The translations under genes were made by a program, and so were the position numbers. A DNA stretch of 64,000 nucleotides from Yuukianura sp. NJ FZ-2021 (taxonomy: Eukaryota): contig CM102289.1 of the NCBI GenBank assembly GCA_046563655.1, forward strand, positions 6,076,001-6,140,000, in the 5' to 3' direction. The number at the start of each line of letters is the position of its first letter. Positions within the stretch are counted from its first letter, which is position 1. Shown piece by piece: positions 37,391 to 62,894 of the stretch. Under the pieces are notes generated by a model, which did no database searches, was not told the origin of the DNA, and worked only from the letters and a program-made list of their open reading frames with translations.

Positions 37391-37808
37391 TTTAAAAACT
37401 AAAATTTTAATTCGAAATTATTTTAACTCAAAACTCCAACAACAGAAAATGGTCGCCTTTTGTTGTTAGCCAAGATCAAGTTCAATGACAAATGATTAAG
37501 AAAAGGGAAAAGTGGAAGTTTCAATTTCATTTGTTCAATTTTTTTTTACAAAGGAAACAAACGTTCCGTTTCTTGAACTCCATTGTTTTCAAATTTCAAT
37601 TTCACTTTAAGCGAGTTGCCGGTAAAATATGAATTTAAACATTTCCGCCTGTTCGCACGCTCTTATGCTCTCATTTCTACGGTCGCTTCCGTCGATTTCA
37701 TTTTCTTTTCCCTTTATGGTCAACTGCTGTCGCTTCTTCAATTTGGAATTTAATTTACTTTCGTTGACGTCGCGTGCAAAATAAACCGCAAAACCTCAAC
37801 TCCACCCA

Positions 37809-37880: not shown

Positions 37881-38541
37881 ACAATGCTTTGTCTTAGATT
37901 TTCAGATTACGAAGAAGGTGAAAGTTTGTTGCTGTTTCATAAAAAATTGTATGTCAAGGTCAACATTTCTTCACCAAAAATTGAGTTTCAGTTGTTCTGG
38001 TTTTATATTACGCTAAATATAATCTGCAGCCTCGATATTGTTACATTTAAAAAATCTAAAACAATGTGGGGGCAAAGTAATTAACAAAAAAACAAAAATA
38101 AAAAATTCATTATTAGAAGCAATCGAGATCAGGTTTTAATTTAAATCGATGTAATTTTCTGTCTGTTTTCTTTTTTCATTTTTTCCATTTTTAGACGCAA
38201 AACTCTAAATTCGTTTAATGAAATTTTTGTCTAAATTATGCCTAACCTAATCTTCCAAAACTTTCGAAACATAAGTTGACTTTTGATGTCTGCACAAAAA
38301 GCCCAGTCTCGAACTTCGCCATATTAAAAACACATAATATTTACAAGGTTGGTGATGATGAAATTACATCGATCAGGTTTTTGATTTTCAAAATTGTCCT
38401 CTGCTCAGACGCAGATTGAAACCATGAAATCGATATTGGTTCGCAAGTTTAGCAATTGTTTCGTAATTCATTTTTCTTCTATTTCATTGTCGGGAACGTT
38501 GGCAAAAAAAGTGCTAAAATTGTTCAAAAATGGCAATACTT

Positions 38542-40244
38542 TTAGCTCATTTGACTTAGCACAACAATGTAAGTGGAAATAACACTTAGACTGGCCAAAA
38601 GTGTTCCGCGTGTAATGGGAAAGAAGCCCCATGCATTAAAGCAAATTGGATTTGCAGAAAAGACGTTCAAGTGACCCATGATGGGGTTGAAGAAAGCGGG
38701 ATCCAATTTTTTCGCTTCAGAAATCATGAATTTTGCAATTCTTAAGTTGACTTCAATTCCTGCTGGATACACATCGCCAAGACATATTGTGAGCATGACT
38801 AGGCGAAGTGTAAAGACAAAAGCATTTCCACCAAATAAAATTGCATTTCTCCATTCAAAATCTTCCCAGTACTTGATTGGTAGAAATGATAGTGCGCAGA
38901 TCATCACGATGAGCTGCCCGAATTCGACAAGGAGCAGCGGTCCAGTGGCTCGGTTTACTTGGCTAACCAATTGCGACATTTCCTGGAATTCGTTCAGCAG
39001 AACCATCATTTTATTGGCGCATTGAGACTCCGGTACTGTTTCGTTGCGGTTTTGCTCGTGGTTCCAAGCGTCTCCGACTACATGGTTTATTTTTCTGGTT
39101 CCAAGTGCATCTACGGTCGGTACGGAGTTGTTACTGTACGATACCACGTCGGTACCGTTCGAAAGCTTCCCTGTAGCGCATATTTCCTGCAAAGAAGATC
39201 TCATGTTAAGTTCATCTACATTCTACGGCACGGTGCCAAACGGTTCGGTAAGGCACAAAGTTATGCATATTTGAAAAATACTTTGTCAGAAAAGGACAAG
39301 TTAGACAATGCAAATTTCCACGACTTTGAAATGTTTTAATTCAAGTTTGAAATTTTTAAAACGTTTTTTTTTTGAAAAGTGCTTACGCTTACTGGACTAC
39401 TTGGTTCCTGACAAAATACTTGTGCTTCCTCGTTTCTATCACGAGTTTCAAGGACGCCATTTACATTATTCAGTGTTGCCGTCATGGTTACTCCGATGAC
39501 ATATCCATAGAGACAAAGTGAACAGTCCATCATGGCGGATCCAATCCATTTCCAAAGCACAAACCATGTTTGACATGCCGAGTGAATCCAAATTTCCAAG
39601 TCGCTGAAGTTGTGCTTCATTGCCGCCCAATTTCGCATTCTTCCGCCATCCACTGGAGTTATGCTGGTAAAATTTGGATTTCTGTACATCTGAACGTAGT
39701 GAAGAACATAGGCGGGATACAGAGGCATTGCATAACTATGATATCCTACAGTTAAGGCTGAAGCGACTCCCAGTACAGCGTAGAACAGAAACATGTTCCG
39801 GGTGAAACGTTTGACATTTGGCGAGGTAAAGACTTGACCACAGTCGCGTTCCACGGATCTCCAGTCCTTGGTGTATAAGTCAATCATGGACTGCGGACAA
39901 GTCAATAGTGTAAGTGACACCAAATAGCTCATGATTGACCCTTGGAACCAGAGAGACTGACCTATGAGCTCAACAATGCTAAGGCCACTCCAGATAGAGA
40001 TGGCCATCGAGATTAAATGAAATAAGAGGTATGCAGTAGCGAGGCAAAAAATTAAAACCGAACGAAAGTAGTTGACGGAGCATTTTTTCTGGTAAAGTCC
40101 GTTATCCGGATCGTCCTCGTTCAATTCAAGTGGAAAAACACCGAACCACTGGCCGATTCGAAAGAGCGGTTTTAATAAAATGACCATTTCGGCTCTTGGC
40201 ACTACTTTTTCACTGGTGTACATTTTGGAACTTGAAACTCTCAT
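38542..40244 (-). CDS. Gustatory receptor (7tm_7 family), two exons
   Basis: N-terminal LKPLFRIGQWFGVFP, multiple TM segments, and C-terminal GR signature FNAWGFFPITRGTLLASLSVISTYIVVLSQ. One intron at about 39281-39392. The start ATG is uncertain (40244 or 40223). Confidence 0.88.
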
Positions 40245-42002
40245 TTCACTTTCACACTGAAGACTGAACTTTATCCTCCTAGTGATGCGGAAAAAGTACT
40301 GAGAGAAAGTTTTGCCCAAAACACGCCCTTTTGCTTCTTCTAGTTTTTCATTTGGGGCGATTATACCAATTGTCAAAACGTCAATTATTTTCAGACGTGT
40401 CCCACCCAAATGCAAAATTTAGAAATTAATCTAAAGACAAGTTCAGTACGGAGTACTAAAACTGAATTTCATTAGTGTCAAAAAAGAGTAAAGGGGAAGG
40501 ATTTTACAACACCCTAGTGGATATTTGACGACCATTTTCTCATTCTAATAGGTAATTCGATTTTCTTTTCATTTCCGTGACTTGTACTACTATTTCATTG
40601 ATGAAATGAGAGTAGAATGGCAGGCGGAACCCTAAATTGACCATAACGTCAAAACTGATCAAAAGTAAGCAATTATTCTAATTGCCATTTTTCACAACTA
40701 CAATGATTCAAGTTAACTGTTATTGTACTTGACAAAAAAAAATGAGCAGATTAATTTCTCAAGTCTTTTTCTTTTACAAAACTAATCCGGAATCTAAACG
40801 CAATTCTCAATGTTAAATTGTTCCAGGCCACCGAGAATTTTGTCCAATTTTCATAATCCGACTCCAAGTCTTGTTTAATCACTTAATATTGTTACTAATG
40901 TTAACGTAGTATGCCAATACTCTTCGTGTCCTGGCTGCAAGAAATCAAACAAGCCATGATTTCCTTCCAGAAATTGTGCCCTTGTGCAAACACGTTTTCG
41001 TTGATGCATGCATGTTTTTTTTTTTGCATGAAAGCCAAAATTCGATTGCTAGGTATTTAAAAAATAACTGCTGTGTATAGGCGGCTACATAACTACTCAA
41101 CTAATTAAGCTAAAAGATGCGTTTAGTACAGAGTAATAAAGTTATATCCCATTAGTGTCAAAACTGAACAAAAGCGGATGGATTTTGCAACAAATCGAAT
41201 TAGTTCGATTTTATTTTCATTTTCATTGTTTCTTAAATGAGGATTTGAAAATAATCAGGAAACTATAGCTAGATCGATCATAGTTTCGAAACTTATCAAA
41301 AATTCGAGAAAACAATTCCTATAATTGCAATTTCCCTGAGCTCGAATTCCGAAGGCTAATTTTTAAGCATGTTAGCCATGAATTATTAGCTAAGAAACAA
41401 ATAGAACAAAAAAAGCCAAGCGCGTCGTTAGTCCTAAAATAAAAAAACAAAGTTTAATTGAAGAAAAACAAGGTTCAATTGCATTGCAGGAGAAATCAGT
41501 TTTTTCCTGCAATTAACTTTTTCTGCAATAAACGTTTCGCCAATTAAAAAAAGTTCTCGTGCATTGTTTTAATTGGTGAAAAATGCTGTTTTAATGCGCA
41601 AAACATTTTTTAACACGCGAAAATTTAAAATAATTTAGCCACCATAATGCCTCCATAACAAACCGGTTTTTATTGACTTGAATGTTCGTTCCAAGGAATT
41701 TAATATAAATGCATCCGAATTGGAACTTTATTCTCGTTAAAGCAACAGCGTTTAATTCATTTTGCCAACATACTCATGAATTTGACTCTCAGAATACTGA
41801 CTTCGAGAATCAGACTTTCGTTGTAATTTGATTTTCGTTGTAATTCGCCTCGGACAAATTCAACTTTTGTAGTAATTTGTTCGATGAAATGGCGTGGGCC
41901 CTATTTTAAAAACAACGAACATCGAATTTATTCGTTAACGCTGAAAAAAGTGGTATTTAATTAAGTATATGTTTGGTTTGTCTGCTTTTTTTAGAAACCA
42001 TA

Positions 42003-43115
42003 ATGAAACTGGCACAGGTCACGCAGAAGACACTGGAGTTTAATTTTGGAACATATTGTGATCCTGTATCTGGAGAGGCAGTTCATGTCACCGGAGAATT
42101 TCCAGTAATTACATCTCACCTGAAAAGACATTTGTATCTGAAGATTTGAAATCCAGTTTCCAGTCGGAAGTTCCTACAAATTTGGGTAGAACAATTTTTT
42201 GAAACGACTTTAAATCCCAAATATGTTGAAGAAATTGTCAATACGGCTACAATATTTGTAGCCATCACGTATCCAATTCAACCCATCGACAGCCCAAAAT
42301 TCAATTTATGTCTTCAGTGGTTCGTGTTCCTATGGATCATGGATGACATTCTGGAGTCATGTGTCAGTGACAAAATCATTTCTGAAGAAGTGTATACCAA
42401 CGGTGCGAAATATCTGCTAGGAATACTCGCCAGATCTACAACAAGCTTTGACAAACAAAAAGTAGAAAATTTTCCTTCGTTTCATGGTTTGTTCAACGCT
42501 TTCTCCGACATTGTCAAAAACCTTGAAATATTTGACACTACCGACGGAACCAAATCGAAACAATTTTACTCGTTTCTAAACGAGTATTTTGAAACTCTTT
42601 CTCGCCGGAATAAAATAGATGGCGCTCTGTCAGAAGAAACGTTTCGGAAATGGCGAGGAACCTCATCGTTTTTTATGGGAAGTGTAGAATTCTACTGGAT
42701 CTTGGAAAGTGAAAATGGGCTACCTTCTGAAATTTTGGAGTCACCCACATTGATTTCCATTTGGTCTGTTCTTGATTCTATGGCGGCATGTACAAATGAT
42801 TTGCTGGGTATCGTCACTGACTTCCTGGGTGTCAACAAACAAGCTAAAAATTACGAAATTGACAATTTAGTTGTTTTCAAAGTTGTTCAAAAAGGGATTC
42901 GATTTTGTGATGCCGTTACTCAAGTTTGTAATTTAATTAAGAACGATGTTTCTGAATATTTGAAGTTGCGGGACAACGTTTTGGAAGAATTTTCAAATTG
43001 TTCAGAACTTGCAAGGTACATTGACCTGATTGAGGCAGTCATACATGGGCACTGCCGATCCTACATGTACATACCACGATATCAAGCTATTGGTTATGTA
43101 AAACTTGTAGACTAA
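42003..43115 (+). pseudogene. Microbial-type class I terpene synthase, copy 1 (intronless; in-frame TGA at 42147-42149 inside a short frameshifted patch, so either a pseudogene or an assembly error)
   Basis: ATG at 42003 is in frame with ORF 42324-43115. Motifs WIMDDILE (DDxxE), CTNDLLGIVTD (NSE-like) and C-terminal RY. Collinear with copy 2 (DPVSGE..GEFPVITS vs DPISGE..GEFPVITS). Confidence 0.75.
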
Positions 43116-43748
43116 TTTTGAATTTGGGAAACTAAGGAAGATTATTACTCAATGATTTAAATGTACGAGTTATAAAATTAATTAAATTTTTGAATTATTA
43201 CGGAATGCTTTTGATAGGATTTACTGGTACTAATGTAAACTTCGGTGGCTTCGGTTAAAGCCGAACTGAAATGTTGCAAGGACACAACCAATATGCAAAA
43301 ATTGTTTAAAAAAATCATTTTGTTGCTGAATGTTGTTTCTTCGTATCCTCGGTTTTGACGACACTTCCTTAATAAAATTCTGTAAATTTTTACTCTCCTT
43401 CCAGTAATTCTTTTGCCATTTACATACCTGTCTGTATTCCTGTTTTTATTCAAAACTGCTTTTAACAATTTAGTAAGGCAATGCATCGGAATTGAGAATT
43501 CATTCTCACTAAAAAGCAACAACTTTTCATTCATTTTACCAACTACCAAGCAATTATTGCTACACGCGAGAAAAAAAACATAACGTTTTTATGGTATTTA
43601 AGTCTTTATTAAGCTTAGGCCAATAGTTAGTACAACAATTGACATCTTCGCTTTTAAATCAAAACCAACATAATAGATACAATAGGAGAATTTAGATTCA
43701 ATTGAAAGTTTTTTAAATACGAAGTTTGTGTTCAATTTTTTTAGAAGT

Positions 43749-44888
43749 ATGGTTACAAAACTTAAAAAACTAAAAGTGCATTACGGAAGTTCAATGCGTA
43801 CTATCTCAAATACCACACAAGGAAGAACGCAGTTTGATTTTGACGAAATTCGTGATCCCATATCTGGTGAATTTATTCAAGTAAAAGGAGAGTTTCCTGT
43901 AATTACATCACGGTTTCAAAAAGGCTTCGCGTCTGAAAAACTGGAACATGTCCAAAAAGATCTCAGAATTTGGCTTCAACAATTTTATGATACCAGTTCA
44001 AATCCAAATTTTTTTGAAGGTATTGTTCAAACAGCTACGCAGTTTATAGCTATCACATATCCACTTCAACCAATTGGCAGCCCCAAGTACAATGTGGCTA
44101 TGAAATTTGTTGCCTTCCTCTGGATCATCGACGACACTCTGGAGTCATGCGTCACAAACAAAACTATTTCGGAACAAATTTTAGTCAACGCTGCGACCTA
44201 TCTGCTAGGAGTACTTTCAAAAACAGTAACAACTTTTGATCCACAAAAAGTAGAAGCCTTCCCGCATTTTCAAGGCCTGTTCAATTCACTTTTGAATTTC
44301 GTTCACATTTTTGAAGAAATGGATCCCACCTACGAACAGAAATCAAAACGATTTTACTCGTTCGTCGAAGACTACTTTCAAACATTTCAATTTTGCTTCA
44401 AGCATAATATGGATGGCACTATGTCAGAAGAAGCGTTTCGGTTATGGCGCAGAATTATTGCGTTTTATGGCGGAGGTTTGGAGTTGTACTGGATCCTGGA
44501 AAGTGACAATGGCCTTCCATCTAAAATTTTGAAATCTCCCGCTTTTACACAAATTTGGCCTCTCCTTGACTCCATTGGGGCTTGTACCAATGACTTACTG
44601 GGCATGAAAAAAGATTTTGGAAATAATGAATTTGATAGTTTACTTGTATTCAAAGTGGTTCAAAAAAGAATTCCGTTTTATGATGCCGTTGCACAAATGT
44701 GTGAAATAATGAAAGACGACATGACGAAATACTTGAAGTGGCGGGAAAACGTTTTGCAAATTTTTTCAAACTGTACGGAGCTGGTCAGGTACATAGACCT
44801 AATAGAAGCTGCTATGCATGGGCACTGCCGTATGTACATGCACATGAAACGATATAATGTTGTTGGTTCTGTAAAAATAGTAGACTAG
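43749..44888 (+). CDS. Microbial-type class I terpene synthase (terpene cyclase), copy 2, intronless
   Basis: About 380-aa single-exon ORF with WIIDDTLE (DDxxE), WRR (candidate pyrophosphate-sensor Arg), CTNDLLGMKKD (NSE-like) and KRY near the C-terminus. Motif spacing is typical of bacterial/fungal alpha-domain-only terpene cyclases. Start ATG is 43749 or 43794. Confidence 0.85.
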   Translation: MVTKLKKLKVHYGSSMRTISNTTQGRTQFDFDEIRDPISGEFIQVKGEFPVITSRFQKGFASEKLEHVQKDLRIWLQQFYDTSSNPNFFEGIVQTATQFIAITYPLQPIGSPKYNVAMKFVAFLWIIDDTLESCVTNKTISEQILVNAATYLLGVLSKTVTTFDPQKVEAFPHFQGLFNSLLNFVHIFEEMDPTYEQKSKRFYSFVEDYFQTFQFCFKHNMDGTMSEEAFRLWRRIIAFYGGGLELYWILESDNGLPSKILKSPAFTQIWPLLDSIGACTNDLLGMKKDFGNNEFDSLLVFKVVQKRIPFYDAVAQMCEIMKDDMTKYLKWRENVLQIFSNCTELVRYIDLIEAAMHGHCRMYMHMKRYNVVGSVKIVD

Positions 44889-46083
44889 AGATACTTTATA
44901 TTTTATAAATCAATATAGTACGCACTTTGTCCAATTCAAATTTCAATAATTTTCGTTAATGGTTAATGATTTATTCTTTAGTTAAGCAAAACTTTTTCAA
45001 TTAAATAACAACGAATTATTTCTCTAATTAAATACAATTTATTCGATTTTTTCTCCTTTCAAAATCTCTTCCTGTTCTTATCACTCAAGGAAAAGTTTTG
45101 GTGACTTTGTCATTGCGGAGTGAACTAAAGCTCAATCCGTTGCACACACGCAGTGTAACTTGCACCGTGCTTTCCTTAACCAGCCGATAACAATCCTGTG
45201 GTGGTGACAAGATTAGAAAATTTCCATTATGATGTCATTGGCGCCGCCTACTACATTCATTCAGCGGATACTAAACTAAAAAGAGTGGTGGTTACATTTC
45301 TAGGGTACACGGGTACACCGGTTACAAGAGTTTCGTTTGTCATTCTGTTAGGACGGCGCCGGATTGACTAGTTTATAATATAGACGCGATCAATGTTGTT
45401 AGAAATTCTACAACAGGTTAGGTTGATCCTTCGAAAATCCTTGGATGCGATAGTGACAATATCTGAGATACTTTGTATGGATAAAGGTATTCAAGGGTAA
45501 TGAAATTTATGGCGTAACTTTGTTTTGAAAGTTTTTCAATAAAACAATAGCGACTGATTACTCTATCTGTCAAGCCATCATTTATTTTTTTTCAAAATTC
45601 TTTGCAAAAGTTGAAGTTGCATGAGATCATTTTGGGAAACCTTGCAATTCTATTGGCGTTCTTCATTAATCTGATCGCATTAACGAGGGCAGGGTATTTA
45701 ATTGTTTGCAACTATTAAATTGCTAATTTTGCTTTGGTTTATGCAATTCATTTCACAGATTTTTCCGGTTCGATACGCGTTCTAATATGCTTGTCGTCTA
45801 AAGCTCAAACCGTTTAATTGTTGAAGTAAGAAGCATAATTAATTACCAACAGCCTATGAACTGGCCTTAGTTTGGCGATTTGATTTTAGATAACGATTAT
45901 TTGGGTAAAGTCTAATCAAGGGCTTTATTTTATCAGTATTGACAAATTCTAACACAATTTGAGCTAGGAGCTGAATCTGCATTTAAAGTCTTTATTAAAT
46001 TTCCAATTCAATTCGAGTTTCCAATTTTAAGTCAAAGCCTTCAATTCTCGCTGCACAAGTAAAGTTACTCTCAGCAAAGGAAA

Positions 46084-48249
46084 ATGATTTTTGAGCTTTG
46101 TGGAATTTTTGTTTTGGCGTACTTGGCTTGGTTCTACTTTGAAAATTATGGAAATGTGGACAAAAGACAACCACCAGGTTAGTGTATTAGTGTAATTATT
46201 AATTACTTTGTAATTAAGAATTGGCCAAAGACTGTTTTACCAAAACATTTTATAATTTTAGGACCAATACGAATTCCACCATTTGGAAATTTAATACAAA
46301 TTGGACTCACGGATCGCGTAACACATATGGCTCTGCAAAAAATGGCCAAACATTATGGCGATGTAATGAGCATCAAAATGGGACTCCTCGAGACCGGTAT
46401 AGCTTCAGATTTTTACATACTTAAAAAAATTATTGATTAATAGTATTTGGTTGCAATTAACTAAACTTATTCTTTTTAATTAGTTATACTTTCTTCCTAC
46501 GAAGCAGTTAAGCAAGTGTTGAGTAAAGAAGAAGCCGCTGGGCGGGACTGTACAGGATTTATTCTGGACAGAAATCTACATAATCCCAGAAATGGCAAGT
46601 TCTAGCGTTGTAGTTTAGTTGAATTAATATGAACGTTGTAACAAAATATTATAAAAAGCTAATCACTTCTTGTCTTAGGTCTAGTATTTTCTGATGGACT
46701 TGTTAATGACACTACCCGAAAATTTTGTTCCGATACGCTTAGAATGTATGGCTACCGAAACCGCCAAACAGTTCAAAATATGTTATTGGATGAACTGACG
46801 GACTTTGTACATTTGATTGAAGACGAAGCCAAGAGCAACGCAGAACATCGCGTACATTTCGGCTCGTACTACTTTAATCCCGCCTTCTTGAACATCATGA
46901 GCACCTTGGTTATGGGAAAACGCTTTAAATATAGTGACCCAAAGTTTCAAAAACTGTTAAAGCATGAAGACGAATTTATGAGTTCTGGGCTTTTGGGTTC
47001 TGGACTCATCACGGCATACCCATTTCTCAGACACATTTTCCCAAAACTTCTTAGTTACGATGTTCAGATGAGTGGAATGAAAGGATTTCATGAAGTTGCA
47101 ACGGTAAAACTGACATTATTACAATTTCGACGCTTGATTTTCAAATTCTCATGCAGAAAAAAATTTTGTTGATGCGGTTTTAGGAAATTTTACAAGAGAA
47201 GAAGAAAGGAAAGTACGACACGAATCCAACTTGTTTTACCGACGACTTTCTACAAAAGATGGACGTAGCGAGTACATTAAAACCGGAAGCAATATTTACA
47301 GGTTTCTAATGCATTTCTTATAATTGATATATATATATGTTGTTACTATACATTTTTTCGTGCTTTCTATTCCAGAGGATCAATTCAAAGTTTTATTTTG
47401 TGACCTCATTCAACCTGGAACAGATACGTCAAACAACGTTTTCAATTTCATTCTGCTGCACCTCACTTCTAATCAAGAGATTCAACAGAAAGTTTACGAC
47501 GAAATCATGAATGTTGTTGGTCCTTATCGAATTGCCAATCTCGATGATAAGGCATCGTACGTTTTTAATTGGAAATTTTAAAAACAAAGGTTTAAACCTA
47601 ACCGCGCGCGAAATTTAAACTTAAATTCGTGAATTACAGTATGCCGTATACAACTGCTGTTACTCTAGAAGGGCTCCGTTGGAATCGAGTAGTTGTTTTA
47701 GGTGCACCACGGAAGGTCTTGAAAGATTTTACCTACAAGAATTTCAAGATTAAGAAGGCAAGAAAACTGACTTTTTATTTCATTATTTTGAATAGAGTTT
47801 TTAAACAATTTTCATTATGAGACTATAATTTTTTTGAAATTTCAGGGCACGGTGCTTCTGTATAATATGCAGAGCGTGTTTTTTGACAAAGAGTTTTGGG
47901 GAGATCCAGAAGTGTTTCGGCCAGAACGATTTTTAGATGAAGAGGGAAAATTTATTACTAAAAAAGTCGATTGTGCTCAATTAGCATTTGGAGCAGGTTG
48001 AAAACATTTACACTTTTGTCTAATGTTGTTTTTTTTTATTAATACCAACTGTATTTTCTGTTAGGAAAACGAAGTTGTTTTGGTGAAACCATGGGCCGTG
48101 ACAGTTTGTTCATATTCACTACGTATCTGATTCAGAAATTCAAATTCACACTCCCGCCAGGACCGAAACCAAATTTGCAACCCAAAGTTTGTTTGAATTT
48201 GTGTCCATATCCTTACGACGCCATTGTCACGCCCAGGAAACCCTCGTGA
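46084..48249 (+). CDS. Cytochrome P450 A (clan 2-like, CYP15/303/305-type), multi-exon
   Basis: N-terminal membrane anchor + PPGP, I-helix QPGTDTS, K-helix EGLR, WGDPEVFRPERF, heme motif FGAGKRSCFG. Stop at 48247-48249. Confidence 0.93.
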
Positions 48250-48783
48250 GTTGGATTTTGTAGATTTTACGAAAATATGATTGTAATAAAACTAAACAAA
48301 ATAAACTCAAATAGAATTTTGTTCTTATCAAACTCTACCACACAATTGAATTGAGTTGAGGTCAACAATGGTTTCATACCCGACTCGAATTGTAGCGAAT
48401 TTTTTTGACAGGGATCTATTTCTTCGTAAAACTCGGTCCGTTTTTATAAGCGAAAGTCAGCTTATATTTATTTTACGATTGACAATACAACCGATTCACG
48501 ATTTAATATGCATCACTATACACAGCGTATTCACTATCTTACATAATTCAAAAATTCAAAACGCTACCGCCAGGAGCATGAGCCGACGCTGCAGCCAAAA
48601 ATCGCGATGAATTTTTGTGTGCATCTCTACGACGCTATTGTGATTGTGACCTGACATTGTACATGTAATGTAAGTTTTTTCTGCTTCAAAGCTTTTATAC
48701 ATAAAAATGAGCTAAAATTCGGAAAGCTGCAGCAGATATTACTGTAAGTAGTGTATGTGATAATTCAAGTATAACGTTTTGAA

Positions 48784-50071
48784 TTAACAGTAATTATTAT
48801 TGTTAAACGTTTCAGATCTTATCACGTCAACCTTGAAAATGGATTTTTGTAAACGGTTTTTCACTTCCGTCGGAATAAGGGCTCTACAAAACACACAAAC
48901 AAAAGTGATTAAAAACATTTTAAAATGAGAAAAGTAAAAGTATTATTGTAAACTAAATTTACTGGAAAAGCGGAAGTGCTGCTGCCATCTTGGGAATAAA
49001 TAAATGCTCCACATTTTGGCGAATGCCTTTAACGATTTCCGCTCCTGCAAATTCCGGTGTCACGACAGGCAAACTTGATGCAAATCTGTATCAAGTTTAA
49101 ACTCAAATTTTTAGTGTTTCAAAAAATTTGATTTTTGCAAGTTTTCACCATTGGGCATGCGCAGTAGACTTACTTTGACTTCAGAGTCACTCCGTTCATA
49201 ACTCTCGTGCTGACCAAGCATGGATAAACAGTTGTAAAACGGATGTTAGATGTGTCAAATGGACTGGCTTCCAACTCTTGTTTAAGTGCTTCAATGAAAC
49301 CGTAATTAGCATGTTTACAAGCCGTGTAAGTTGTAAGTTCTCTGGCGGGAAAGAATGAAGCAATGGATGCAACAGTCACGATGTGACCATGGTTCTTTTC
49401 TACCATTCCCGTCAAAAATTCACGCAGAATTTGAAAATGAGAGAGGACGTTGACTCTAAGCATTTTCTCCTCTACTTCCGACCTCATTTGAAGAAAGTTT
49501 CCGTTGGGAATAATTCCGGCATTGTTCACTACCATCGTCACTTCCCCTACTTCCTTCCGAACCTAGTTTTTGAAAAAAGAAATCACAAAAAATGCTAAGT
49601 TTTTCAAAATTTTGATTTTTTTTGTACTTTCGAGGATGCTTCTTTAATAGCCGCCATATCCGAAATATCCACTGTGTAATTGTAAGCCTTCGTTCCGGAG
49701 TTACATAATTCAGTGACTAATGTTGAATTTGCTTCTGAATCAATATCCCAGCAAACAAGTTTTGCTCCAAGATTTCCCAAATTTAGTGCAATTTGTCTTC
49801 CAATCCCATTTCCAGCTCCTGTTATCTGTAAATTCAAAATATTAAATTTTCTTTGATTTTTTTAAAATTTAAAGGTGTCAAATTCTAGAAAGTGAAATAC
49901 ACTTACAAGAATTACTTCTCCTCTGAGGCATTTCAGTTCCGGAGGAATGAAAAATTGAAAAATCTTTTTTACAATTACAAATGTCCAAATTAAATTCACT
50001 ATTGTGATTTCCCACAAGTATTCACATCCTTGTTTCAAATTTTTAAGAACAACCACGCTTAGGTCATCCAT
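48784..50071 (-). CDS. Short-chain dehydrogenase/reductase (SDR16C / 17-beta-HSD11/13 / retinol dehydrogenase-like)
   Basis: N-terminal hydrophobic anchor, TGAGNGIG Rossmann motif, NNAG, GHIVTVAS, YTACK (YxxxK). Five exons to TAA at 48786-48784. Confidence 0.92.
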
Positions 50072-50879
50072 TTTGAGTTTAATTCAAGAATTAACTTTAA
50101 AGTTTAGGGTACAATTAGAACGCACTCACAAATTAAAATTTGAAACAACAAGCAAATCTTTATTGAAGCTAAACTTCAGAATGAAAGTTAAGGAATGAAA
50201 CAGAACTTTACAAATGTAGTCTTACTTTTTCTACTGAAAAAAAAAGACAATGCAAGAATGCAACACAGATGAAGGAAAAAACACTGTTATTTACATCCGT
50301 TGATCGTACACATTCTCATGCTTTTAGAATTATCATTAAAACTTAACGCTGCGTCTAATTAGCCAAAGAGGGAAAATGAGACACATTTGAAAAAAAAAAT
50401 ATATGCAAAAAAAATTCCACTCATGCGGTAAAACTAATACAAAAGCCATGAATTATTTGTTATTTTCAAAGTTTTCTTGGAAAGTGACTTGGGAAACCTT
50501 CATTTACTAAAATAGTGGTTTTCCGTAAAAATCCCTATGTAGATAATACAAGACAGACGCCAAGTGTGTTTTTGTGGGGGCAGTTTTGTTGACCAACCAG
50601 TTTGTAGCTTGATGAGGAGGATTTTTTTCAGCATAATAAATACAAAATCAAGCCCTAACATAACACAACCCTATATTAAGTAAATAAATTTTGACCTTGT
50701 AATGTCAGCGGCTTTTTTGATTCTGGGAAGGTTAATTTCTGATCAGCTTGTTAAACTTCTTCGTAAGTTCAGTTTAGGATCCGCAACAACTTCCAGTTTA
50801 TTAATTGCTTTCAAGAAGATTTAACCTCAAAAGTGAACAAAACGTCAATTCATCCAGTACAAAAAATTTAAAAAGTAAA

Positions 50880-53080
50880 ATGATTGTGGAACTGGCATTG
50901 CTGTTAGTTGTGGCGTATTTGATTTGGTTTTATGTTGAGAATTTCTTCGATACGGACGGGGCGCCTCCGGGTAATAACTTTGTTATTAATTTAAAAACAA
51001 ACATAACTAATAACTCTGATGTTATACATTTCATCGGTAACTTGAATTTTGTTTTTAAAAACAAGGGCCCATACGCATTCCTCCATTTGGAAACTTGATT
51101 CAAATTGGATTTGCACATAACAAGAGTCATATTGCTTTTGCGAATTTGTCAAAAAAGTATGGAGATGTCATGAGTATTAAAGTGGGTTTGATGGAAGCAG
51201 GTAGAATTGTTTATCAGAAATATATTTAACTAATATAATTTTAATTACTTTTCATTTTTCAAAAGTTATTTTATCTTCATACGAAGCTGTGCGAAATGTT
51301 TTCACCAAAGATGAAACTTGTGCCCGTCTCATTGCATCATTCGTTTGGGAGAGAAATTTAAGACAAAAGATAGGCAAGTAACAATAAAATTATGTTAGAA
51401 TGCTCGTAATTTTGAACTGAAAAAAATTTTTCTTTTAGGCTTGGTATTCTCTGAAGGACAATTTCACACAGATACTCGAAAATATTGCAGAGATGCTTTA
51501 AAATGCTATGGGTTTGGAGATCGTATTGCAATGCAGACCATGTTGCTAGAAGAATTGAACACCGAATTTATAAAGATTATAGACAATGAAGCCAAATCCA
51601 GCCCAGAGTCCACAGTTCATTTTGACCACTTGTTTTTTCAAAAATGCTTTATGAACATAATGGTAACTTTACTGACTGGCAAAAGATGGAGCTACACTGA
51701 TGAGAACTTCCAGGCTCTACTGCATCATAACGAAACAGTTATCAACAATGGAGCTTTAGGAACAGGCCTGCTAATTGCATTCCCTTTTCTAAGATACGTT
51801 TTCCCAGAGGCTTTAGGATACAACGCTATGATGACAGGATTTGCAGGGTTGCGTGATGTTGCTCTGGTAGTACAAACAATTTATCAAAAAAAAATATATT
51901 GATTTGCAAGCTTTCCCTGGGAAATTATGAAAAAGCCTTTCTTGAAATTTAGGGCGTGTTGGATGAAAGAGAAAAGCATCGTCTGAAGAACAGTCCAGAG
52001 TGTTTCACGGATAATTTTTTGGAAGAAAAAGACAAAGAAAAAGCGACTGGCAAAGGAATATTCACAGGTATTAAAAAACTAAGAAAAAAATTGTTAAGAA
52101 AAAACAATACTTTTAAAATCTTTTGGTTGCTTGGTTTAGAAGATCATTTTGTCGTTACCTTCTGCGACTTCGTCCATGCTGGCGGTGAAACTACAAGCAC
52201 CGTGGTTAACTTCATCATTCTTCTACTTACTGCATATCCGGAAGTGCAAGAAAAAGTTTACGAGGAAATTCTGGAAGTCATAGGACCTTCAGTGTCTCCG
52301 GCTATTGAAAACAGACATTTGTAACAAACGCCAAAAGTAATTTATTACTTTGATGAAGTTTACTTCTATCATATTCGTTTTTCACCATAGAATGCCTTAT
52401 ACTCAAGCAGTTATTCTGGAAGGACTTCGTTGGAACAGAGTCGTCGTAATTGGACCTCCAAGGAAAGCTACAAGCGACTTCTGCTATAAAAACTACAAAA
52501 TTAAAAAAGTAAGCAGCAAAAAAAGGAATTCAGAAGAACAGATTTTTTTAATTAGAAAAACAGATATTAGATATCGTAAAAGTAAACCTTTTTGTTACGT
52601 AAGATTCCCTTCTTAACCAAGTTTCAATTTTTCATTACTTTTTCTAAACAGGGGACTACACTGATGTTTAATCTCCAACCAATTTTTTTCAACAAAGAAT
52701 TTTGGGGAGACCCAGAGGTGTTTCGTCCTGAACGCTTTCTTGACTCGGATGGAAATGTTGACACAAAGAAAGCGGAAATTATTCAAATTGGATTTGGTGC
52801 AGGTGAAAATGATACACAATTGCTAAAAATTTAAAAAAAAATGGCTTTCATCCCACTCAAATCGTTTTTCAATCAATTTTTGTTTCCAGGAAAGCGTAAT
52901 TGTTTCGGTGAAGTTTTTGCTCGTGACAGCCTCTTCATTTTCGTGACGACTCTCATTCAAAGATTTAAATTTTCCCTCTCGCCTAAAAATCCGAAGCCAA
53001 GTTTGGAACCTATAGTAACTGCTACTCTGGCTCCAGAACCTTATGATGCGATTGTTACACCGCGACTGCAATTCCAATGA
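50880..53080 (+). CDS. Cytochrome P450 B (clan 2-like), paralog of A and C
   Basis: MIVELALLLVV anchor, PPGP, I-helix HAGGETT, EGLR, PERF, FGAGKRNCFG. Same intron positions as CYP A and C. Confidence 0.93.
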
Positions 53081-53794
53081 ATACATGAAATACTCAAATA
53101 GATGTGATATGGAAAGCAAAAACAGTTGCAAACGCCGTAACGAAGTAGTGAAACGGACAGTAAGCATATGAGTGTGAGAGCGACAATAATTTGACTCCAG
53201 AAAAACGGACGGACAGACGAACAGGCAAACACGAGCAAAAGCAGTGACAAAAACTGTTAAGCATCATTCTATTCGCTACCTAATAATTAAATCTTGCCTC
53301 AAATTTCTATTTTAATGTAAATCATTGTTTATAAACCAAATCCGAATTAGGAACAGCGACAGCGGCAGCGGCTCTATATTTTGAAATGTCTAGTACAAAG
53401 TGTTTTTTTTTCTTGGATTTACGATGGGTCGCTTCAAAGTCCAGAACAACACTGTAAATGGTCTGTATAGTTTTGTATTTTCGCGAGTCACAGTCAATGT
53501 TATGGCATGCGCATGACGCTTTTTTTATCCCAATGCAAAAGCAAACACGCACATCAACTAGACACAATCTGGAGAAAATTGACCTTGTCGTGTCAGCGGT
53601 TTATTTTTTTTGTTTTTGGTTGTTCCGTTGCTGATTTAATTTACCAAACTTCACACTCTCTCAGTTGAGTTTATGATATTAAAGAAGTTGCAGCTAGGTC
53701 CGTTTTGATTTCCAGAAGACCCAGTTTCTAGGCCTTGTTTTCAAACGTAACTGAATAAAAGTTTTGACAATCAACCTTAGAAATAGCAAATATA

Positions 53795-55983
53795 ATGTTT
53801 TTGGAACTATCATCACTGTTAGTTGTATTGTACCTGTTATGGTTTTATTTTGAAAACTTTGCCAAAAGGAATAAGGCACCTCCTGGTAATTTATTCATTT
53901 TTAATGTATAAAGGAAATTCAAACTTTCTAACTACTTGTAACATTAACTTTGCTGTTTGTAAATTAGTGTTGCTTTTTGTATGCAACAGGGCCAAAATGT
54001 ATCCCGCCATTTGGAAATCTGCTTCAAATTGGATTTGAACATAAAACGGCTCATATTGGCCTTGACAATCTGGCCAAAAAATATGGAGATGCCATGAGCA
54101 TTAAAATGGGGTTGATGGAAACTGGTAAATTCTTACTTAACAACACAACCAGAGTTGATATTCAATTGGTTAATTTTTATTTTTCTCCTTAAAGTTATTC
54201 TTTCGTCATACGAAGCTGTACGAAATGTTTACACCAAAGACGAAGCTTGTGGTCGTCTCTGCTCTGCATTTATTTGGGAAAGGAATCTCAAGCAAAATAT
54301 TGGCAAGTGAAATATGGATCTGCTGGCCTTTAGCTTTACAGATTTTTGTGTCGTATTTTTAAATGAGCAAATTTTTGAAATTTCTGAACCAAATTTATAA
54401 AAATTTTAGGCTTAGGCTTTGCCGAAGGACCCTCCCAGGCAGAGACTCGAAAATACTGTCGAGAAGTTTTAAAACGCTATGGGTTTGGAGATCGTATAGC
54501 CATGCAGACTATGTTGCTGGAAGAGTTAAACTCAGAATTCATAAAACATGTCGAAAATGAAGCTAAATCGAGCCCTGAGTCCATAATTCACATAGAACCT
54601 AACTTTTTCCAAAAATGCTTTTTGAACATTATGGTTACATTACTCACCAGCAAACGGTGGAGATACACTGATGAAAACTTTCAGGCTCTACTTCATTCTA
54701 ACGAAATACTTACCAACAATGCGGCTATGGGAACGGGTATAATGATTGCGTACCCTTTCCTATTACATGTTTTCCCGGAAGCGTTGGGATACAACGTTGT
54801 AATGTCAGGATTAGCCGGGATTCAAAAAGTTGCTCTGGTAATGTTCAAAATTTAGAAACTATTCTTCAACATGAGGTCATAATTCCTGATGAATTTTTAG
54901 AGCGTTTTGAACGAAAGAAGAAACTTGCGTCGCAAAAACAGTCCAGAATGTTTTACGGACAGTTTCTTGGACGAAATGGACAAAGAAAAAGAGACAGGCA
55001 CAAAAGTGTTTACAGGTTTGCTAACAAAAACAAATATTTAAAAGTTCAAAAGTGAATTATTTTGTTCTTGCTTGTTTTTTGCTATCAGAAGATCATTATG
55101 TAGTTCTTTTCTGCGACTTCATCCAAGCCGGTGCAGATACAACAAGCAACGTCGTAAACTTTACAATTCTTCAGCTTACAGCAAATCCAGATGTACAGGA
55201 AAAAGTTTACCAAGAAATTCTGGAAGTCATTGGACCGTCAGGGTTTCCAGCTATAGAAAATAGACAATCGTAATAATGACCAAAACTACAGATTTAAAAA
55301 AACAACAACATACAAACAACTTAACTATAGTTGTTGTTATTCATTTTAGAATGCCTTATACTCAAGCCGTTATTTTGGAAGCGCTTCGATGGAATCGAGT
55401 CGTCGTACTGGGACCTCCAAGGAAAGCCACAAGCGACTTTTGGTATAAAAACTACAAAATCAAAAAGGTAAAGCATCCAAAAGTAAACTTTTTCATGAAA
55501 GTAATCTTCTAACATAATTTTATCAAACAAACTTTAGAAATTTTTGCTTTTGGTTATTTTTTAAATTTTCCAAACAGGGAACTGTACTGATGTTTAACCT
55601 TCACAGCATCTTTTTCAACAAAGAATTTTGGGGAGACCCAGACGTGTTTCGTCCTGAACGTTTTCTCGATTCAAATGGAAATTTGGACACGAAGAAAGCG
55701 GAAATTATTCAAATTGGATTTGGAGCCGGTAAAACTAACAAACAAGCTAACTTTTAAAAATGAATTTATAACGTCAATTTTCTAACTAAATGTAGGAAAA
55801 CGCAATTGTTTTGGTGAAGTTTTTGCTCGTGACAGCCTCTTTATTTTTGTGACGACTCTTATCCAAAAATTCAAATTTTCCCTCTCCCCTAAACTTCCGA
55901 AACCAAGTATGGAACCCGTGGTAGGCGTTACTCTTGCTGCACCTCCTTATGATGCGATTGTCACAACACGTACACAATTGTAA
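53795..55983 (+). CDS. Cytochrome P450 C (clan 2-like), close paralog of B
   Basis: MFLELSSLLVVLYLLWFYFENF anchor, I-helix QAGADTT, EALR, PERF, FGAGKRNCFG. Stop at 55981-55983. Confidence 0.93.
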
Positions 55984-56062
55984 TTAACTACAAATTGCCT
56001 TTAAAATTATACAACAAAAGCAATAAATAAGTTTTCGCTTAAAAATTTATTCAATTTTTGAA

Positions 56063-57386: not shown

Positions 57387-57939
57387 TTTCTACAACTTCA
57401 AGTTCGAACTAAAACTTAATATTGGAATCGGTGATTTACCAATTTATTTGAAATCATTCCCTAAGTTCCTGTAGAGTTGTTAAGTTATCTTAATGACGTA
57501 GTTAAACCTACGTTAATCAAGTAAATAATGAAGTAAGCTATTAGGAAGCAATTGAAACTAAGGAAAATCCATACAAAGCCAAATGGCCATTAGGAACAAA
57601 GAAAATATGAGTTATGTAAAGAGACGTTGGCTACTTGTAAACAGCAAAACAGAATGAATAATAACAACTACTACATTAGATTAATGTTTTAACATTAATT
57701 CATACAATTGATGAATATTTATTAAAATATTAGTTATTAACGCCAGACAATTATTCAGCAACCCTTTTTGCATATTAGCCACATGTCTGTTTTACACCAT
57801 GATTTAAATCCACGTTTCATCCACAACCGCCATCGAATCGCTATATTATGATTAAGCCTATTGTTAGTTTAGTACTATTTGCCAAGCATTGAGCGTTGGG
57901 CGATTCGTATTAGGTTACAATATTCAAGAGTTACAAGAC

Positions 57940-60900
57940 ATGGACAAAAACGAAAACTTAAGTTTTAGGTAAATTTCATACCACAATAAGAACACTGTTA
58001 AAATTCATGTTCTAGATTTTAACAATCTTGACTTGGAACAGATGGATTTTTAGAATCATCGAGAAAGGAATTTCGGAGACGCTAAGGATGTCAGATTTTT
58101 CAAAATTGGATACAGATGAATCGGATTACAGTAGTGGAACTGGACAAAGTTCATATTTGAAAAAAAATTTAAGAGAGCATTGGGAAAAACGTAAAAACCA
58201 TCGTTACGGGTTAATGTCCGCAATCTTCCATACGTTCAAATTCCCAATACTCTTCTGCCTTGTTGTTCGGATCCTTGATAGATGTTTCTTGATGTGAGCT
58301 TTACAAAACTTATAAAAACATGATGAATTCAAGAAATTATAAAATACTTTTGTTATTTACATTTCATAGGGCGGTAGAACGGCTTTTGCTCGGAGAAGTT
58401 ATTCAAGCAGTCCGCATTTGCAAAACAGGGAGTTGCTCAAATGCCTGGATTATAATTGGCTTCGTGATGGTGACTACTCTACGCTGTGTTCTACATAGAG
58501 TATTTTATTTTATCAACAAAGCACTCTGTAAGAAAGTGCGAATCGCAGTAACCTCTTTGTTTTACAGCAAGGTAAGAAAAAAAATCTAAACCCTGAATTT
58601 TTTAAACTTTGTTTAATATCAGTCATTTGTTTGTTAGCTGCTGCGTCTTAGTCTTAACTCTCTTCAAAAAATACGAACAGGAGACTTGGTTTCACTTGTG
58701 TGTTCTGGTGGAATGGCAATTGAAATGTCGTTCTTCATTCCCTCTATTATAACTGGTCCGCTACAAATTTTAGCTCAGTTTTACGTGCTCTGGACGAACT
58801 TTCAAGGAGCGTCTGGAAGTGGACTTGGAGTTTTAATCCTACTTGGAGTTTGGCAAAGTTTGAATGCAAAAATTTTCCAAACTGGTGTTTTCAATATTGA
58901 AAATAATTTCAAAAATTTCTTTGATCGAAGGTTACTTAGGAAAGCTGGGAACATACTACAGAACGAAAATCGCAATTGCTTCGGCAAGTCGATTAAGATT
59001 GGTTACACAAATTCTAAGTGGAATCAAAACAATAAAGCTGCGGACATTGGAAAATTTCTTTTACAATAAAGTTGCTACAGAACGAAGGTGAGTTTCTTTG
59101 CTCAGCATGTTTGAAAAATTTGAATGAAAACGTTCAAACAGTTTTGTATTTTTAGAAAAGGATGTATTGAACTTGGGAATTCAAATATTTTAGAAGCACT
59201 ACGTTACATAACGGCCTCATGTAGTCCGATCCTAGCCATGATCATTACCGTTTCTTGCTACGTGTTGTTTGGAAATGAAAAGTCTCCAGAACAAGTCTGT
59301 TTAAATTCCAAAACGAAAGGTCAAATTTCATTTTAAGAACACTGAATTTTTAAAAAAACTTATGCACTTTTAGATAGTCGTGGCTTCTACAATTTTCTAC
59401 CACCTTCGAGCAACTATTTTCGTGGATATACCAACCGGACTGAAACAACTTGGAAGTTTGAAAAACGTAGTGTGCCGGTTCCAAGTAAGTGTTAAAAATA
59501 AGCTTCAAATTTTCGAATAATACCCGAAAAAAATGAAAGTCAATTTTCAGGAAATCTTGCTTTTGGAAGAAGTAAATTCTCGTGTTCAAACTGATTTTGC
59601 GAAAGGCAACATTTCAATTACGAATTTAGTTTTGAAGTCGGATTGTAACAAACTGACTTTGGAAAATAGTATAATCAGAAACGGAAACTTGGATGTTGCA
59701 TATGGAGAATTTTTACAAATTGTCGGCAAAACTGGAAGTGGAAAGGTTGGTATGAAACTGATTTGTTAAACATCAGTGGCGTACACGCAGTAAATTTTAT
59801 GCTTTCAGTTTTTCTGGCCGAAAATTTTATGTTTCTTTAATCTTTTGTAGACTGCTTTGCTAAAAGCCATTTTGGGAGAACTGGCTTTGGACAGTGGTGA
59901 AATCAAAGTTGGTGGTAAAATTTCATATGCTTCGCAGGATCCTTGGATTTTTCCGGGAACAATTCGGCACAACATAACTTTCTATTCAAAATTTGATACT
60001 GCGAGATACAGGAAGATTATCGAAGCATGCGCACTCGTTGACGATCTAAACGCAATGCAGTTTGGTGACCTTACTGTCGTAGCTGAAGGTGGAGGTGACC
60101 TCAGCGGAGGTCAAAAGTCAAGAATTGCTTTAGCAAGGTAAAATGATGAAACGAATTCGAAAACAAAAGACATGATTTGAATTAAGTTAAAACTAAATTC
60201 TACGCTAAATTCTAGAGCCATCTACGCAGATGTGGAAATTTACATTCTGGATGACGTTTTGAGCAACATAGATGCTCATGTTGGAGCTCATGTTTTTAAC
60301 CACTGCATCAACGCCTTCCTTAAAGATAAAACTGTTATTCTCTGTTCTGGAAACAAAGTTTCTAGTGAACACCATAATGGAACGTTTGATAAGTTTGAAA
60401 AACAAATTCAACGTTTGAATGGAAATGCGAACAATTTAGCTCCAATTTCTGGAAGGACTGATTATCAACGAAGAATTCTCAAAAACTCCTACCTCGGAAT
60501 TGGTAAAAATGAAATTGAAAATTTGGAAGCTGAGAAAAAATCAAGTTCCAGCAGCACCGTTGAAGTATATTGGCAGTATTTAGCGATTGGATCTGGATAT
60601 AAACACTGTTTTCTTTACTGTGTTTTTACTATTTGCTTTATGACACTCTACCACCAAATGGAGTTTTGGTTACAACAAAGGTAACAAAATAAATAAAAGT
60701 CGTTGAAATTTTGAATTTTAAAAATGTTTTTTTGTTTCAGTTTCAAAAATCTCTCAACCGAACTGAACGTTAACTATGATCACATCGGATTTGCACTCGG
60801 AGTCATTTGCTTAATATTAGTAGCTGCGGGACAGCAAATATTTTTGCTAAAAATTATTAAAAATGGACGTGAACATTTTCATAACAAAATGCTTTCTTCT

Positions 60901-62894
60901 GTCCTTGCCGCTCCGCTTACGTATTTCACTAAAACGCCTCGAGGTAAAAAAAACGACCTGGTAAAATTGAGTTAAAGACAGGATTTTTTATCACTTTTTT
61001 TTTGAAAATTTACTTGTTTAGGTGAAATTTTGGAACAATTCAGTTCGAACTTGGCAGTGATTGATGAAATTTTTGCATTCAAGCTTCATGATGCCATTCA
61101 TGTAAGACAAACTTCAAATTTGTGTTTCATGCAAATTATTTTTAGTAAAATGTTTTTCTAGATTTTTTTGATGTACTTGGCTGGTTACTCAATTTTGGTC
61201 TACAAAGTCGGTGCAACTGCAACCGCTCCTCTTGTAGGGTTGTTCACCGTTGGTTTTTACGTGCAAAAGTTCAACATCAAAATATGTCAACAGTTGACAG
61301 TTTTGTCACAGAAAGGTTAGTGTAAGCCGCAAAAAATAAAAAATTATTATATTTATGTTGTTATACTTTTACAGCAAAAATTCCAATTGTATCGGGAATA
61401 ACATCTTCGATCAATGGAATAACAACAATAAGGGCACTGCGGAAATGTAAAGAAGTGGAACAACATTATGACCATTGCCTTGACACTAGGTTTTGGATTG
61501 ACCTTGCCCACTTGGGAGTCGATGACCTCGCGACTTTGGTCATTGACCTTACAACGATTGGACTTTTAAACGCTGCAGTGATTGCTGCCGTATTTTTTCC
61601 AACATATGGAATTGAGGCGGCACTTTCACCATTGTTGTCGTTTGGAGCTACAGTCGGATTTGCATTTTCACTCGGCGTTGTACTCGTGTCAAATGGAAAA
61701 TGCGCTGAAGGCATTCTGAACGTCCACCAAGTTCAACCTGAATCTTATTGTAACTTCAAAGAATATTTTTACCTCACTTGTTAAAAAAATGCATTTTAAA
61801 AAAAAATACGTTTGTATTTGCATTATAACCTTACAGCGTGTGTTAAGCAACAAGAAACAGACCTTACTCAGTGGCCGTGGAAAGGAAAAATTGTGTTTTC
61901 AGACGTTTCAGCCGAATATGAACCTGGGATTTCTGTTTTAAAAAATTTGAACTTTACTATACAACCTGGAGAAACTGTAAAACTCTTTTTATGCATTCAT
62001 AACTTCGTTTTTTTTATCAGTTCAAGCTTGCACTTTTTGTTTATGATAACAATCTAGGTTGCGATTATTGGGAAAACGGGATGCGGAAAATCAACTCTAA
62101 CCTCAACTCTTGTCCGATTAATTGAAATTTGCACTGGAGAAATCCTGATTGATGGTATCAACATTTGTGACGTTCCTTTGAAGCAATTGCGGCAGAAAGT
62201 GTTCGTTGTACCACAAGACCCTTTCGTTTTCCATGGAAGTTTGAGAATTTTCCTGGATCCAGTTGGAGAGTTCAGTGACGATGAAATCTGGGAGGCCCTT
62301 CACACAGTACAATTGGACAATATGTTTTCAACATTTGAAAATGGACTTCAAACTGAGGTTTCTGCAGTATTTTGTTAATTTCGAAAATGCAATATTTTGC
62401 AATAAATCCAAGAATTTCAACATCGATTTTTTTCAGATTGGTGAAATGCAAAGCGTGTTAAGTTCTGGACAGTTGCAACTCTTGAATTTGGCGAAAGCCG
62501 TTCTAGTAAAGCCGAGAATTTTGGTTTTGGACGAGTCAATGGCTTATATGGATGAAAAGTAAGGTTTTTTTTTTTCAAGTTTTAAAAATTGGTTTTTTCA
62601 AAAAACATTGATTTCAAACAGTACCAGTCAAATCGTCTCAAGGAACATTAGGAGTGTTCTGCCTAATACAACAATTGTGACAGTTTTGCATAGACTCACT
62701 TTCATTCATACCTTTGACAAGGTTATGATTATGGACAATGGGGAAGTTACCGTAAGTTGTATTTCTTTAAATTATGATTTATATTGATATGGTAGTTAAA
62801 TTTTTGCATGTTTAAGGATTATGGTTCTCCAGAATCTATCGCCAGTTTGTCATTGCCTGACGACAATTCAAAAGACGTCATAGACGTCAAGTAA
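57940..62894 (+). CDS. ABC transporter subfamily C (MRP4-like, TMD-NBD-TMD-NBD), multi-exon
   Basis: NBD1: GKTGSGKT, SYASQDPWIF, LSGGQKSRIALAR, IYILDD. NBD2: WPWKGKIVF, GKTGCGKS, VPQDP, LSSGQ, ILVLDE, HRL. Stop at 62892-62894. Confidence 0.9.

Follow-up and report, generated by a model that had tools for sequence, protein, structure and literature searches.

A probable host-encoded terpene synthase of the microbial-type springtail family, intronless and adjacent to a decaying tandem copy

Canonical terpene synthase (TPS) genes have been described in Collembola, Acariformes and Sciaridae, and three of the springtail enzymes proved active (Chen et al., 2024; PMC11665903). A later survey of 26 springtail genomes counted 277 such genes, spread over 21 of the genomes; 152 of the genes have introns and 125 (45%) do not (Wang et al., 2026; PMC13638087). 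The springtail genes form a distinct clade whose origin is described as unresolved and presumably horizontal (PMC13638087), and both publications regard the family as foreign in origin (PMC11665903; PMC13638087). Its members are active on geranyl diphosphate (GPP), farnesyl diphosphate (FPP) and geranylgeranyl diphosphate (GGPP) (PMC11665903), or on substrates ranging from FPP to geranylfarnesyl diphosphate (GFPP) (PMC13638087). For the five Sinella enzymes that have been characterised the motif is given as NDxxSxxxE, and one of them is inactive in vitro (PMC13638087), as is reportedly the fungus-gnat enzyme BcTPS4, although the motifs are intact in both. The gene considered here, TPS2, is found at positions 43749..44888 on the plus strand of a 64,000-nucleotide (nt) stretch of contig CM102289.1 (positions 6,076,001 to 6,140,000; assembly GCA_046563655.1, Yuukianura sp. 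NJ FZ-2021), hereafter the window. TPS2 is very likely a gene of the host itself and codes for a class I terpene synthase that is probably active and belongs to the microbial-type family expanded in springtails.

As judged from its sequence, TPS2 belongs to the terpene synthase family already described in springtails in 2024 and 2026, and it represents no new category, since family, distribution, intron status and activity have all been published. It shares its Pfam family and a single alpha domain of ~330-400 amino acids (aa) with the collembolan enzymes FcTPS and AfTPS (PMC11665903) and with ScTC1-5 and the 277 surveyed genes (PMC13638087). Also in common with these enzymes are a DDxx(D/E) motif, a sensor arginine, an RY pair and a species-specific tandem expansion, and TPS2 is intronless like 45% of the family. 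The main difference from the characterised Sinella enzymes is the metal-binding triad, which reads NDxxGxxxD in TPS2 instead of NDxxSxxxE.

The TPS2 reading frame runs uninterrupted from ATG to TAG over 379 codons, with an in-frame TAG at 43683-43685, 64 nt 5′ of the ATG, and an alternative start at M16. By our own estimate, a stop-free frame of 400 codons would arise by chance with a probability of ~1e-12 in DNA of ~38% GC, where stops occur at ~0.066 per codon. Full-length relatives measure 334-386 aa and the fold model is also complete; since the open reading frame (ORF) covers both, the coding part is a single exon. This agrees with the sequence-only reading of the window, which had proposed a single coding exon of about 1.14 kb carrying DDxxE, NDxxGxxxD and RY motifs, and all three motifs are present. 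The Asp-rich metal-binding motif DDTLE (44130..44144, residues 128-132) is the only DDxx[DE] motif in the whole protein. Across a 26-sequence family alignment, from which all conservation counts are taken, D128 and D129 are invariant (26/26), and position 132 is Asp in 14/26 and Glu in 11/26. The pair R234-R235 (44448..44453) lies 46-47 residues before N281 and contains the candidate pyrophosphate-sensor arginine; R234 is kept in 20/26 members, and we take its role to be that of the sensor in bacterial terpene synthases. The C-terminal RY pair occupies 44850..44855 (residues 368-369), with Arg and Tyr each in 24/26.

The NSE/DTE consensus of class I enzymes is (N/D)Dxx(S/T)xxxE. In TPS2 this region reads NDLLGMKKD (44589..44615, residues 281-289), a variant triad with Gly in place of Ser/Thr and Asp in place of Glu. 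Within the family, N281 is kept in 25/26 and D282 in 24/26 members, position 285 holds Gly in 19 and Ser in 7, and at position 289 there are 15 members with Asp and 9 with Glu. Because Gly (19/26) and Asp (15/26) are the majority residues, NDxxGxxxD is characteristic of the family and does not represent a lesion.

Terpene_syn_C_2 (PF19086) is the sole Pfam family matched by TPS2 at E<=1 (30.0 bits against a cut-off of 23.7, E 5.4e-7), with residues 119-325 aligned to positions 1-197 of the 199 in the profile; the same scan gave no match to polyprenyl_synt (PF00348) at E<=1. A sequence search of solved structures returned epi-isozizaene synthase as a weak top match (E 0.008), and the ten best named clusters from a protein language model were all PF19086 terpene synthases. 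The AlphaFold2 model, built on the 26-sequence family alignment, has a predicted local distance difference test score (pLDDT) of 91.0 and a predicted template-modelling score of 0.90. With this model, Foldseek found 293 matches in the PDB at E<=1e-3 with a probability of 1.00, and the best 50 of the 293 are bacterial and fungal class I terpene cyclases apart from one N-prenyltransferase with the terpene synthase fold, DabA. VIA-align superimposed the model on Sorangium 10-epi-cubebol synthase (7zrn_A) with Z 31.0 and a root-mean-square deviation (rmsd) of 2.5 Å over 297 residues, and on fungal Copu9 with Z 30.2; many others lie at Z 27.5-30, and 765 of 995 chains reach Z>=8. The top 50 matches all reach Z>=27.5, two N-prenyltransferases of the terpene synthase fold among them.

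The sole Pfam match to Terpene_syn_C_2, the single DDxx[DE] motif and the fold match at Z ~30 to bacterial and fungal cyclases support the assignment of TPS2, from sequence and model, as a microbial-type (alpha-domain, class I) terpene synthase that is not derived from isoprenyl diphosphate synthases (IDS). The proposal of a microbial-type, non-IDS cyclase in the sequence-only reading thus stands, on the profile search it had called for. IDS-derived insect TPSs and trans-IDS enzymes use the same substrates and have the same broad alpha-helical terpenoid synthase superfold, but TPS2 differs from both in that it has one DDxx[DE] motif and not two, carries an RY pair and a second motif of the NSE type, and lacks any polyprenyl_synt match at E<=1. 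Bacterial class I synthases (ScCubS, 7zrn; 1-epi-cubenol synthase, 9hqa; epi-isozizaene synthase, 3kb9) have the same fold, with Z 28-31 and rmsd 2.5-3.2 Å over ~300 residues, and the bacterial sesquiterpene and diterpene synthases share the motif order of TPS2, with a weak but real sequence link (E 0.008). Unlike these enzymes, to which its identity is 10-19%, TPS2 has ~25-45 additional N-terminal residues predicted to form beta strands, has the Gly/Asp triad and is encoded in an animal genome. The model predicts four N-terminal beta strands within residues 8-51 (43770-43901), including E25-35 and E42-51, which would pair with a C-terminal strand at 375-378 (44871-44882); pLDDT is 85-96 from residue 21, and the motif GEFP-I--R is kept across the TPS2 family. 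For most solved bacterial cyclases the alignment starts no earlier than residue 28-48, and the N-terminal strands are largely outside the matched core.

An exhaustive profile search of 1,835,955,588 representative proteins returned 50 relatives at E<=1e-3, six of them at E<=1e-30. Thirty of the 50 were looked up: seven are from Folsomia candida, one is from Sorangium, and 22 are from JGI/IMG metagenomes or Logan assemblies and have no organism label. Among the named relatives, those closest to TPS2 are chromosomal genes of F. candida (contig sizes 1-28 Mb), one of them annotated as "(+)-germacrene D synthase"; identity between TPS2 and the named F. candida proteins in the alignment is only 16-23%. 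The Sorangium terpene synthase is the only named bacterial match (E 6.9e-6), and the search found no sequence from a bacterium or fungus that is markedly nearer to TPS2 than the springtail genes are. Two less sensitive searches were also made. A word-indexed homology search, too insensitive here, gave no match with TPS2 itself and only three F. candida proteins with the 26-sequence profile, and a pattern scan of low sensitivity detected no relative in metagenome contigs or in the genomes of 185,579 prokaryote species. One distant family member from a metagenome, P0038, has 755 aa, about twice the usual length, and bears the source name "undecaprenyl diphosphate synthase"; it may be a terpene synthase-prenyltransferase fusion.

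A midpoint-rooted maximum-likelihood (ML) tree was built from 33 rows, namely the two TPS copies of the window, the 29 matches of at least 240 aa (the 21 shorter of the 50 being excluded) and two further cluster members. Sorangium provides its only named non-arthropod rows, and mite, sciarid (fungus-gnat) and fungal sequences are not included. TPS2 and its tandem copy are sisters (100/100) and group with unnamed metagenome sequences (96/85) within a 15-row clade (95/90) that holds the F. candida proteins P0007, P0016 and P0032, while Sorangium is placed on a very long branch (2.74). The phylogeny suggested by the sequence-only reading therefore groups TPS2 with F. candida terpene synthases. 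The canonical TPSs of mites and fungus gnats (Sciaridae) are also of the microbial type, on arthropod chromosomes and with tandem duplications, and in published trees the springtail genes form a clade apart from them (PMC11665903); no named mite or sciarid protein is among the 30 of 50 relatives looked up.

These relationships bear on whether the source species acquired the gene recently and independently, straight from a bacterium or fungus. The intronless frame and the microbial-type fold and Pfam family would fit such an event, which is nevertheless scarcely credible. TPS2 nests among F. candida genes and its sole named bacterial match is remote, its composition is host-like, and its tandem duplicate is old (dS ~1, see below). 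Single ORFs are also found in independent relatives on metagenome contigs with eukaryote-like gene spacing, as in the 45% of springtail genes without introns (PMC13638087). Of the probable horizontal acquisition proposed from the sequence, the foreign origin of the family agrees with the published view, whereas a fresh or isolated transfer does not hold against the F. candida clade, the host-like third codon positions and the age of the duplicate. The lack of introns is ordinary for this family (125/277; PMC13638087).

The sequence-only reading did not mention a second, single-exon TPS copy, TPS1psi, which lies upstream in tandem at 42003..43115 on the plus strand and is interrupted. Its claim that every other protein-coding gene in the window has introns consequently holds for the cytochrome P450, short-chain dehydrogenase/reductase (SDR), gustatory-receptor and ATP-binding cassette (ABC) transporter genes, which are all split over several ORFs, but not for this copy. 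The two proteins share 55% identity over 318 aa (BLASTP E 5e-134; tblastn extent 41997-43112), and at the DNA level the copies appear as direct repeats D3 and D9 with 73-74% nt identity. TPS1psi scores 17.2 bits against PF19086, below the cut-off of 23.7. Codon 49 is a premature TGA (42147..42149), and ~16 codons around it have no similarity to TPS2 in frame; another frame keeps a collinear 5/10 identities (score 24), and two compensating indels are thus possible. In contigs of runs X1, X2 and X3, which come from one sample, a deletion allele lacks 288 bp of this copy (42787..43074; joint 42786→43075), including the metal-binding motif NDLLGIVTD. Comparison of the two copies gives a ratio of non-synonymous to synonymous substitution (dN/dS) of 0.28-0.38, with dS 0.7-1.0; both were therefore long kept as coding genes, and the damage to TPS1 is recent. 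Taken from its sequence, TPS1psi is probably a young pseudogene.

The copies also share an upstream element (41708..41769 and 43480-43543, plus strand; 80% identity over 64 nt, blastn E 7.8e-12) that is located 206-295 nt before each ATG and may, by its position, be part of a duplicated promoter. A further joint, 41769→43323, which would remove TPS1psi, is seen in X1, X3 and X4, with short sides and with the letters between them not known. In run X4 (organism B), TPS2 (43323-44579) is present at ~95% identity on a contig that carries this joint.

If the enzyme acts as others of its family do, D128, D129 and E132, together with N281 and D289 of the variant triad, would hold the Mg2+ cluster, and this cluster, R234 and R368-Y369 would bind the diphosphate of an isoprenyl diphosphate. 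By analogy with the characterised springtail enzymes, the substrate would most likely be FPP, possibly GGPP or GFPP. Ionisation would yield an allylic cation to be cyclised or quenched within the alpha-helical barrel, and the outcome would be one or more terpenes, either hydrocarbons or alcohols. The gene itself would have arisen by duplication inside the host lineage, with the upstream copy now decaying, and the ultimate source of the family would be an old transfer from a microbe, as inferred in the literature, and not a recent event in this genome.

Several points weigh against this interpretation of TPS2. The middle ligand of its NSE triad is Gly and not Ser/Thr, and the last is Asp and not Glu, in contrast to NDxxSxxxE in the characterised Sinella enzymes, and intact motifs are no guarantee of activity in vitro, as one of the five Sinella enzymes and BcTPS4 illustrate. 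Its function is predicted from the gene, and the runs listed for 38500-47500 include none from RNA. The tree contains no mite, fungus-gnat or fungal rows, and an organism label is missing from 22 of the 30 relatives looked up. Membership in the springtails is indirect, in that it draws on the relatives of the TPS and on neighbouring genes of arthropod type; a search with an SDR exon, made to place the host, yielded unnamed, vertebrate and fungal matches only.

TPS2 could accordingly be an intact-looking relic, either unexpressed or catalytically dead through the Gly/Asp triad, or the terpene synthase fold could be used for another reaction such as prenyl transfer. The departures at G285 and D289 from the canonical residues, the decay already under way in the sister copy, the in vitro inactivity of some family members with intact motifs (PMC11665903; PMC13638087) and the presence of the N-prenyltransferases DabA and KabA among the structural matches (Z 28-29) could all be explained in this way. 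We nonetheless consider this improbable. Gly and Asp predominate at these two positions across the family, which is unlike decay, all remaining catalytic residues are present, the 379-codon frame is still open in AT-rich DNA, and dN/dS between the two copies is 0.28-0.38.

The chromosomal setting also favours a host-encoded terpene synthase. On composition and neighbours, TPS2 sits in host-like DNA between arthropod-type genes. Its GC content is 0.38 and its GC content at third codon positions (GC3) is 0.36, within the GC3 range of neighbouring exons (0.32-0.45), and the GC profile shows no island. On the 5′ side, a gustatory-receptor-type gene of at least two exons is located at 38542..40418 on the minus strand (Pfam 7tm_7, 34.1 and 32.6 bits against a cut-off of 26.6). 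On the 3′ side, the multi-exon P450 gene CYP-A (46183..48246, plus strand) begins 1.3 kb downstream of TPS2 and comprises five ORFs that match successive parts of PF00067. Further upstream are host genes represented by a PDZ-domain exon (18335-19801), an Nse4 exon (30456-30992) and a Spaetzle exon (34955-35464, minus strand), in addition to long low-complexity exons at 25470-27473 and 35831-37417. The linkage to arthropod genes that the sequence-only reading had drawn on thus holds within the window, with 7tm_7, Spaetzle and P450 genes and host-like GC3.

Read data were available as Logan contigs, for which 32 contig pieces are considered here (1071 more exist). Contigs from two studies (organisms A and B) carry TPS2 and its flanks at ~95-99% identity, and one contig of 3,040 nt spans both TPS copies. 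A high-copy repeat at 41406-42056, just 5′ of TPS1psi, has a contig depth ~10x that of the flanks in run X1 and a raised depth in all four runs, and many loose ends, joints and contig breaks fall within it. Among the contig pieces considered, none bridges 41530-41615 or 44913-45685, which lie between receptor and TPS and between TPS and P450; the evidence for these two joins is the assembly itself. Many further pieces exist beyond those considered, so the missing bridge is not evidence against the joins. The depth of TPS2, available as contig depths only, equals that of the flanks in X1-X3. For X4, a contig depth of 147 over TPS2 against ~6 in the flanks might suggest extra copies, but this reading was rejected, as the value is a mean over a whole contig that also holds part of the high-copy repeat.

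The unbridged intervals and the repeat at 41.4-42.0 kb, at ~10x the flanking depth, would be compatible with microbial contamination or a chimeric assembly join that placed TPS2 outside the arthropod chromosome, an explanation that is highly unlikely. TPS2 resembles its neighbours in both GC and GC3, and its GC content falls far short of that in the lineage of the one named bacterial relative, which also shows compositional deviation. The nearest named relatives are themselves chromosomal genes of F. candida on 1-28 Mb contigs, and the low-sensitivity scan of prokaryote genomes detected no relative. The tandem duplicate and the common upstream element lie in the same DNA, and the contig depths of X1-X3 are those of the flanks.

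Within 18 kb 3′ of TPS2 are three P450 genes, an SDR gene on the opposite strand and an ABC transporter gene. CYP-A is followed by the SDR gene, which has at least two exons (49170..49858, minus strand; adh_short 89.5 and 46.3 bits), by CYP-B (51059..53077, plus strand), a multi-exon P450 gene with five ORFs that match PF00067 in order, and by its multi-exon tandem duplicate CYP-C (53968..55980, plus strand; PF00067). CYP-B and CYP-C share 79-84% nt identity, and CYP-A 61-70%. The multi-exon ABC transporter gene (58864..62559, plus strand) has two membrane and two ATPase regions, with ABC_membrane and ABC_tran matches on five ORFs, some of which remain under the Pfam cut-off because they are single exons. 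Slightly beyond it, an ORF at 63274-63471 (plus strand) scores 24.3 bits against the Pfam family of diapausin antimicrobial peptides, below the cut-off of 25 (E 3.3e-5). These peptides have a patchy distribution among arthropods and fungi.

From the gene order, the layout at 46183-62559 downstream of TPS2 resembles a biosynthetic gene cluster. It is conceivable, although rather unlikely, that TPS2, the three tandem P450 genes, the SDR gene and the ABC transporter gene (43.7-62.6 kb) form a co-regulated springtail terpenoid cluster, in which the cyclase would make the scaffold, the P450s and the SDR would oxidise it and the transporter would export the product. Octocoral and sponge terpene cyclases, which are also animal-encoded class I enzymes, have adjoining tailoring genes (PMC12685057; PMC9992776; PMC11784711), as P450 genes adjoin TPS2, but they belong to other phyla than the host of TPS2. 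P450 arrays are common in arthropods, which weighs on such a proposal. The springtail survey makes no mention of P450s and uses "cluster" for tree grouping only (PMC13638087), and a literature search for terpene synthase and P450 gene clusters in Collembola found no report. A eukaryote-like metagenome contig of 10.9 kb, L001, carries an intronless TPS relative, and no P450 match was found in its four largest neighbouring ORFs (<=6.5 kb upstream and <=3.2 kb downstream). One ORF on L001 (2574-3839, minus strand; 421 aa), 2.7 kb from the TPS relative, has many hydrophobic segments and no Pfam family, and this multi-pass membrane ORF shows no similarity to the gustatory receptor of the window.

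The analysis of this locus with independent tools confirms springtail-type canonical terpene synthases as chromosomal, long-maintained animal genes. A single locus here shows both the birth and the death of copies, with an intact gene next to a decaying duplicate in which a deletion is segregating. The cluster of TPS2 with its P450, SDR and transporter neighbours, if real, would account at the genetic level for the oxidised terpenoids of springtails noted by Wang et al. (2026; PMC13638087). TPS2 is a concrete candidate enzyme, with candidate tailoring neighbours, in the terpenoid chemistry of soil microarthropods, which has received little study.

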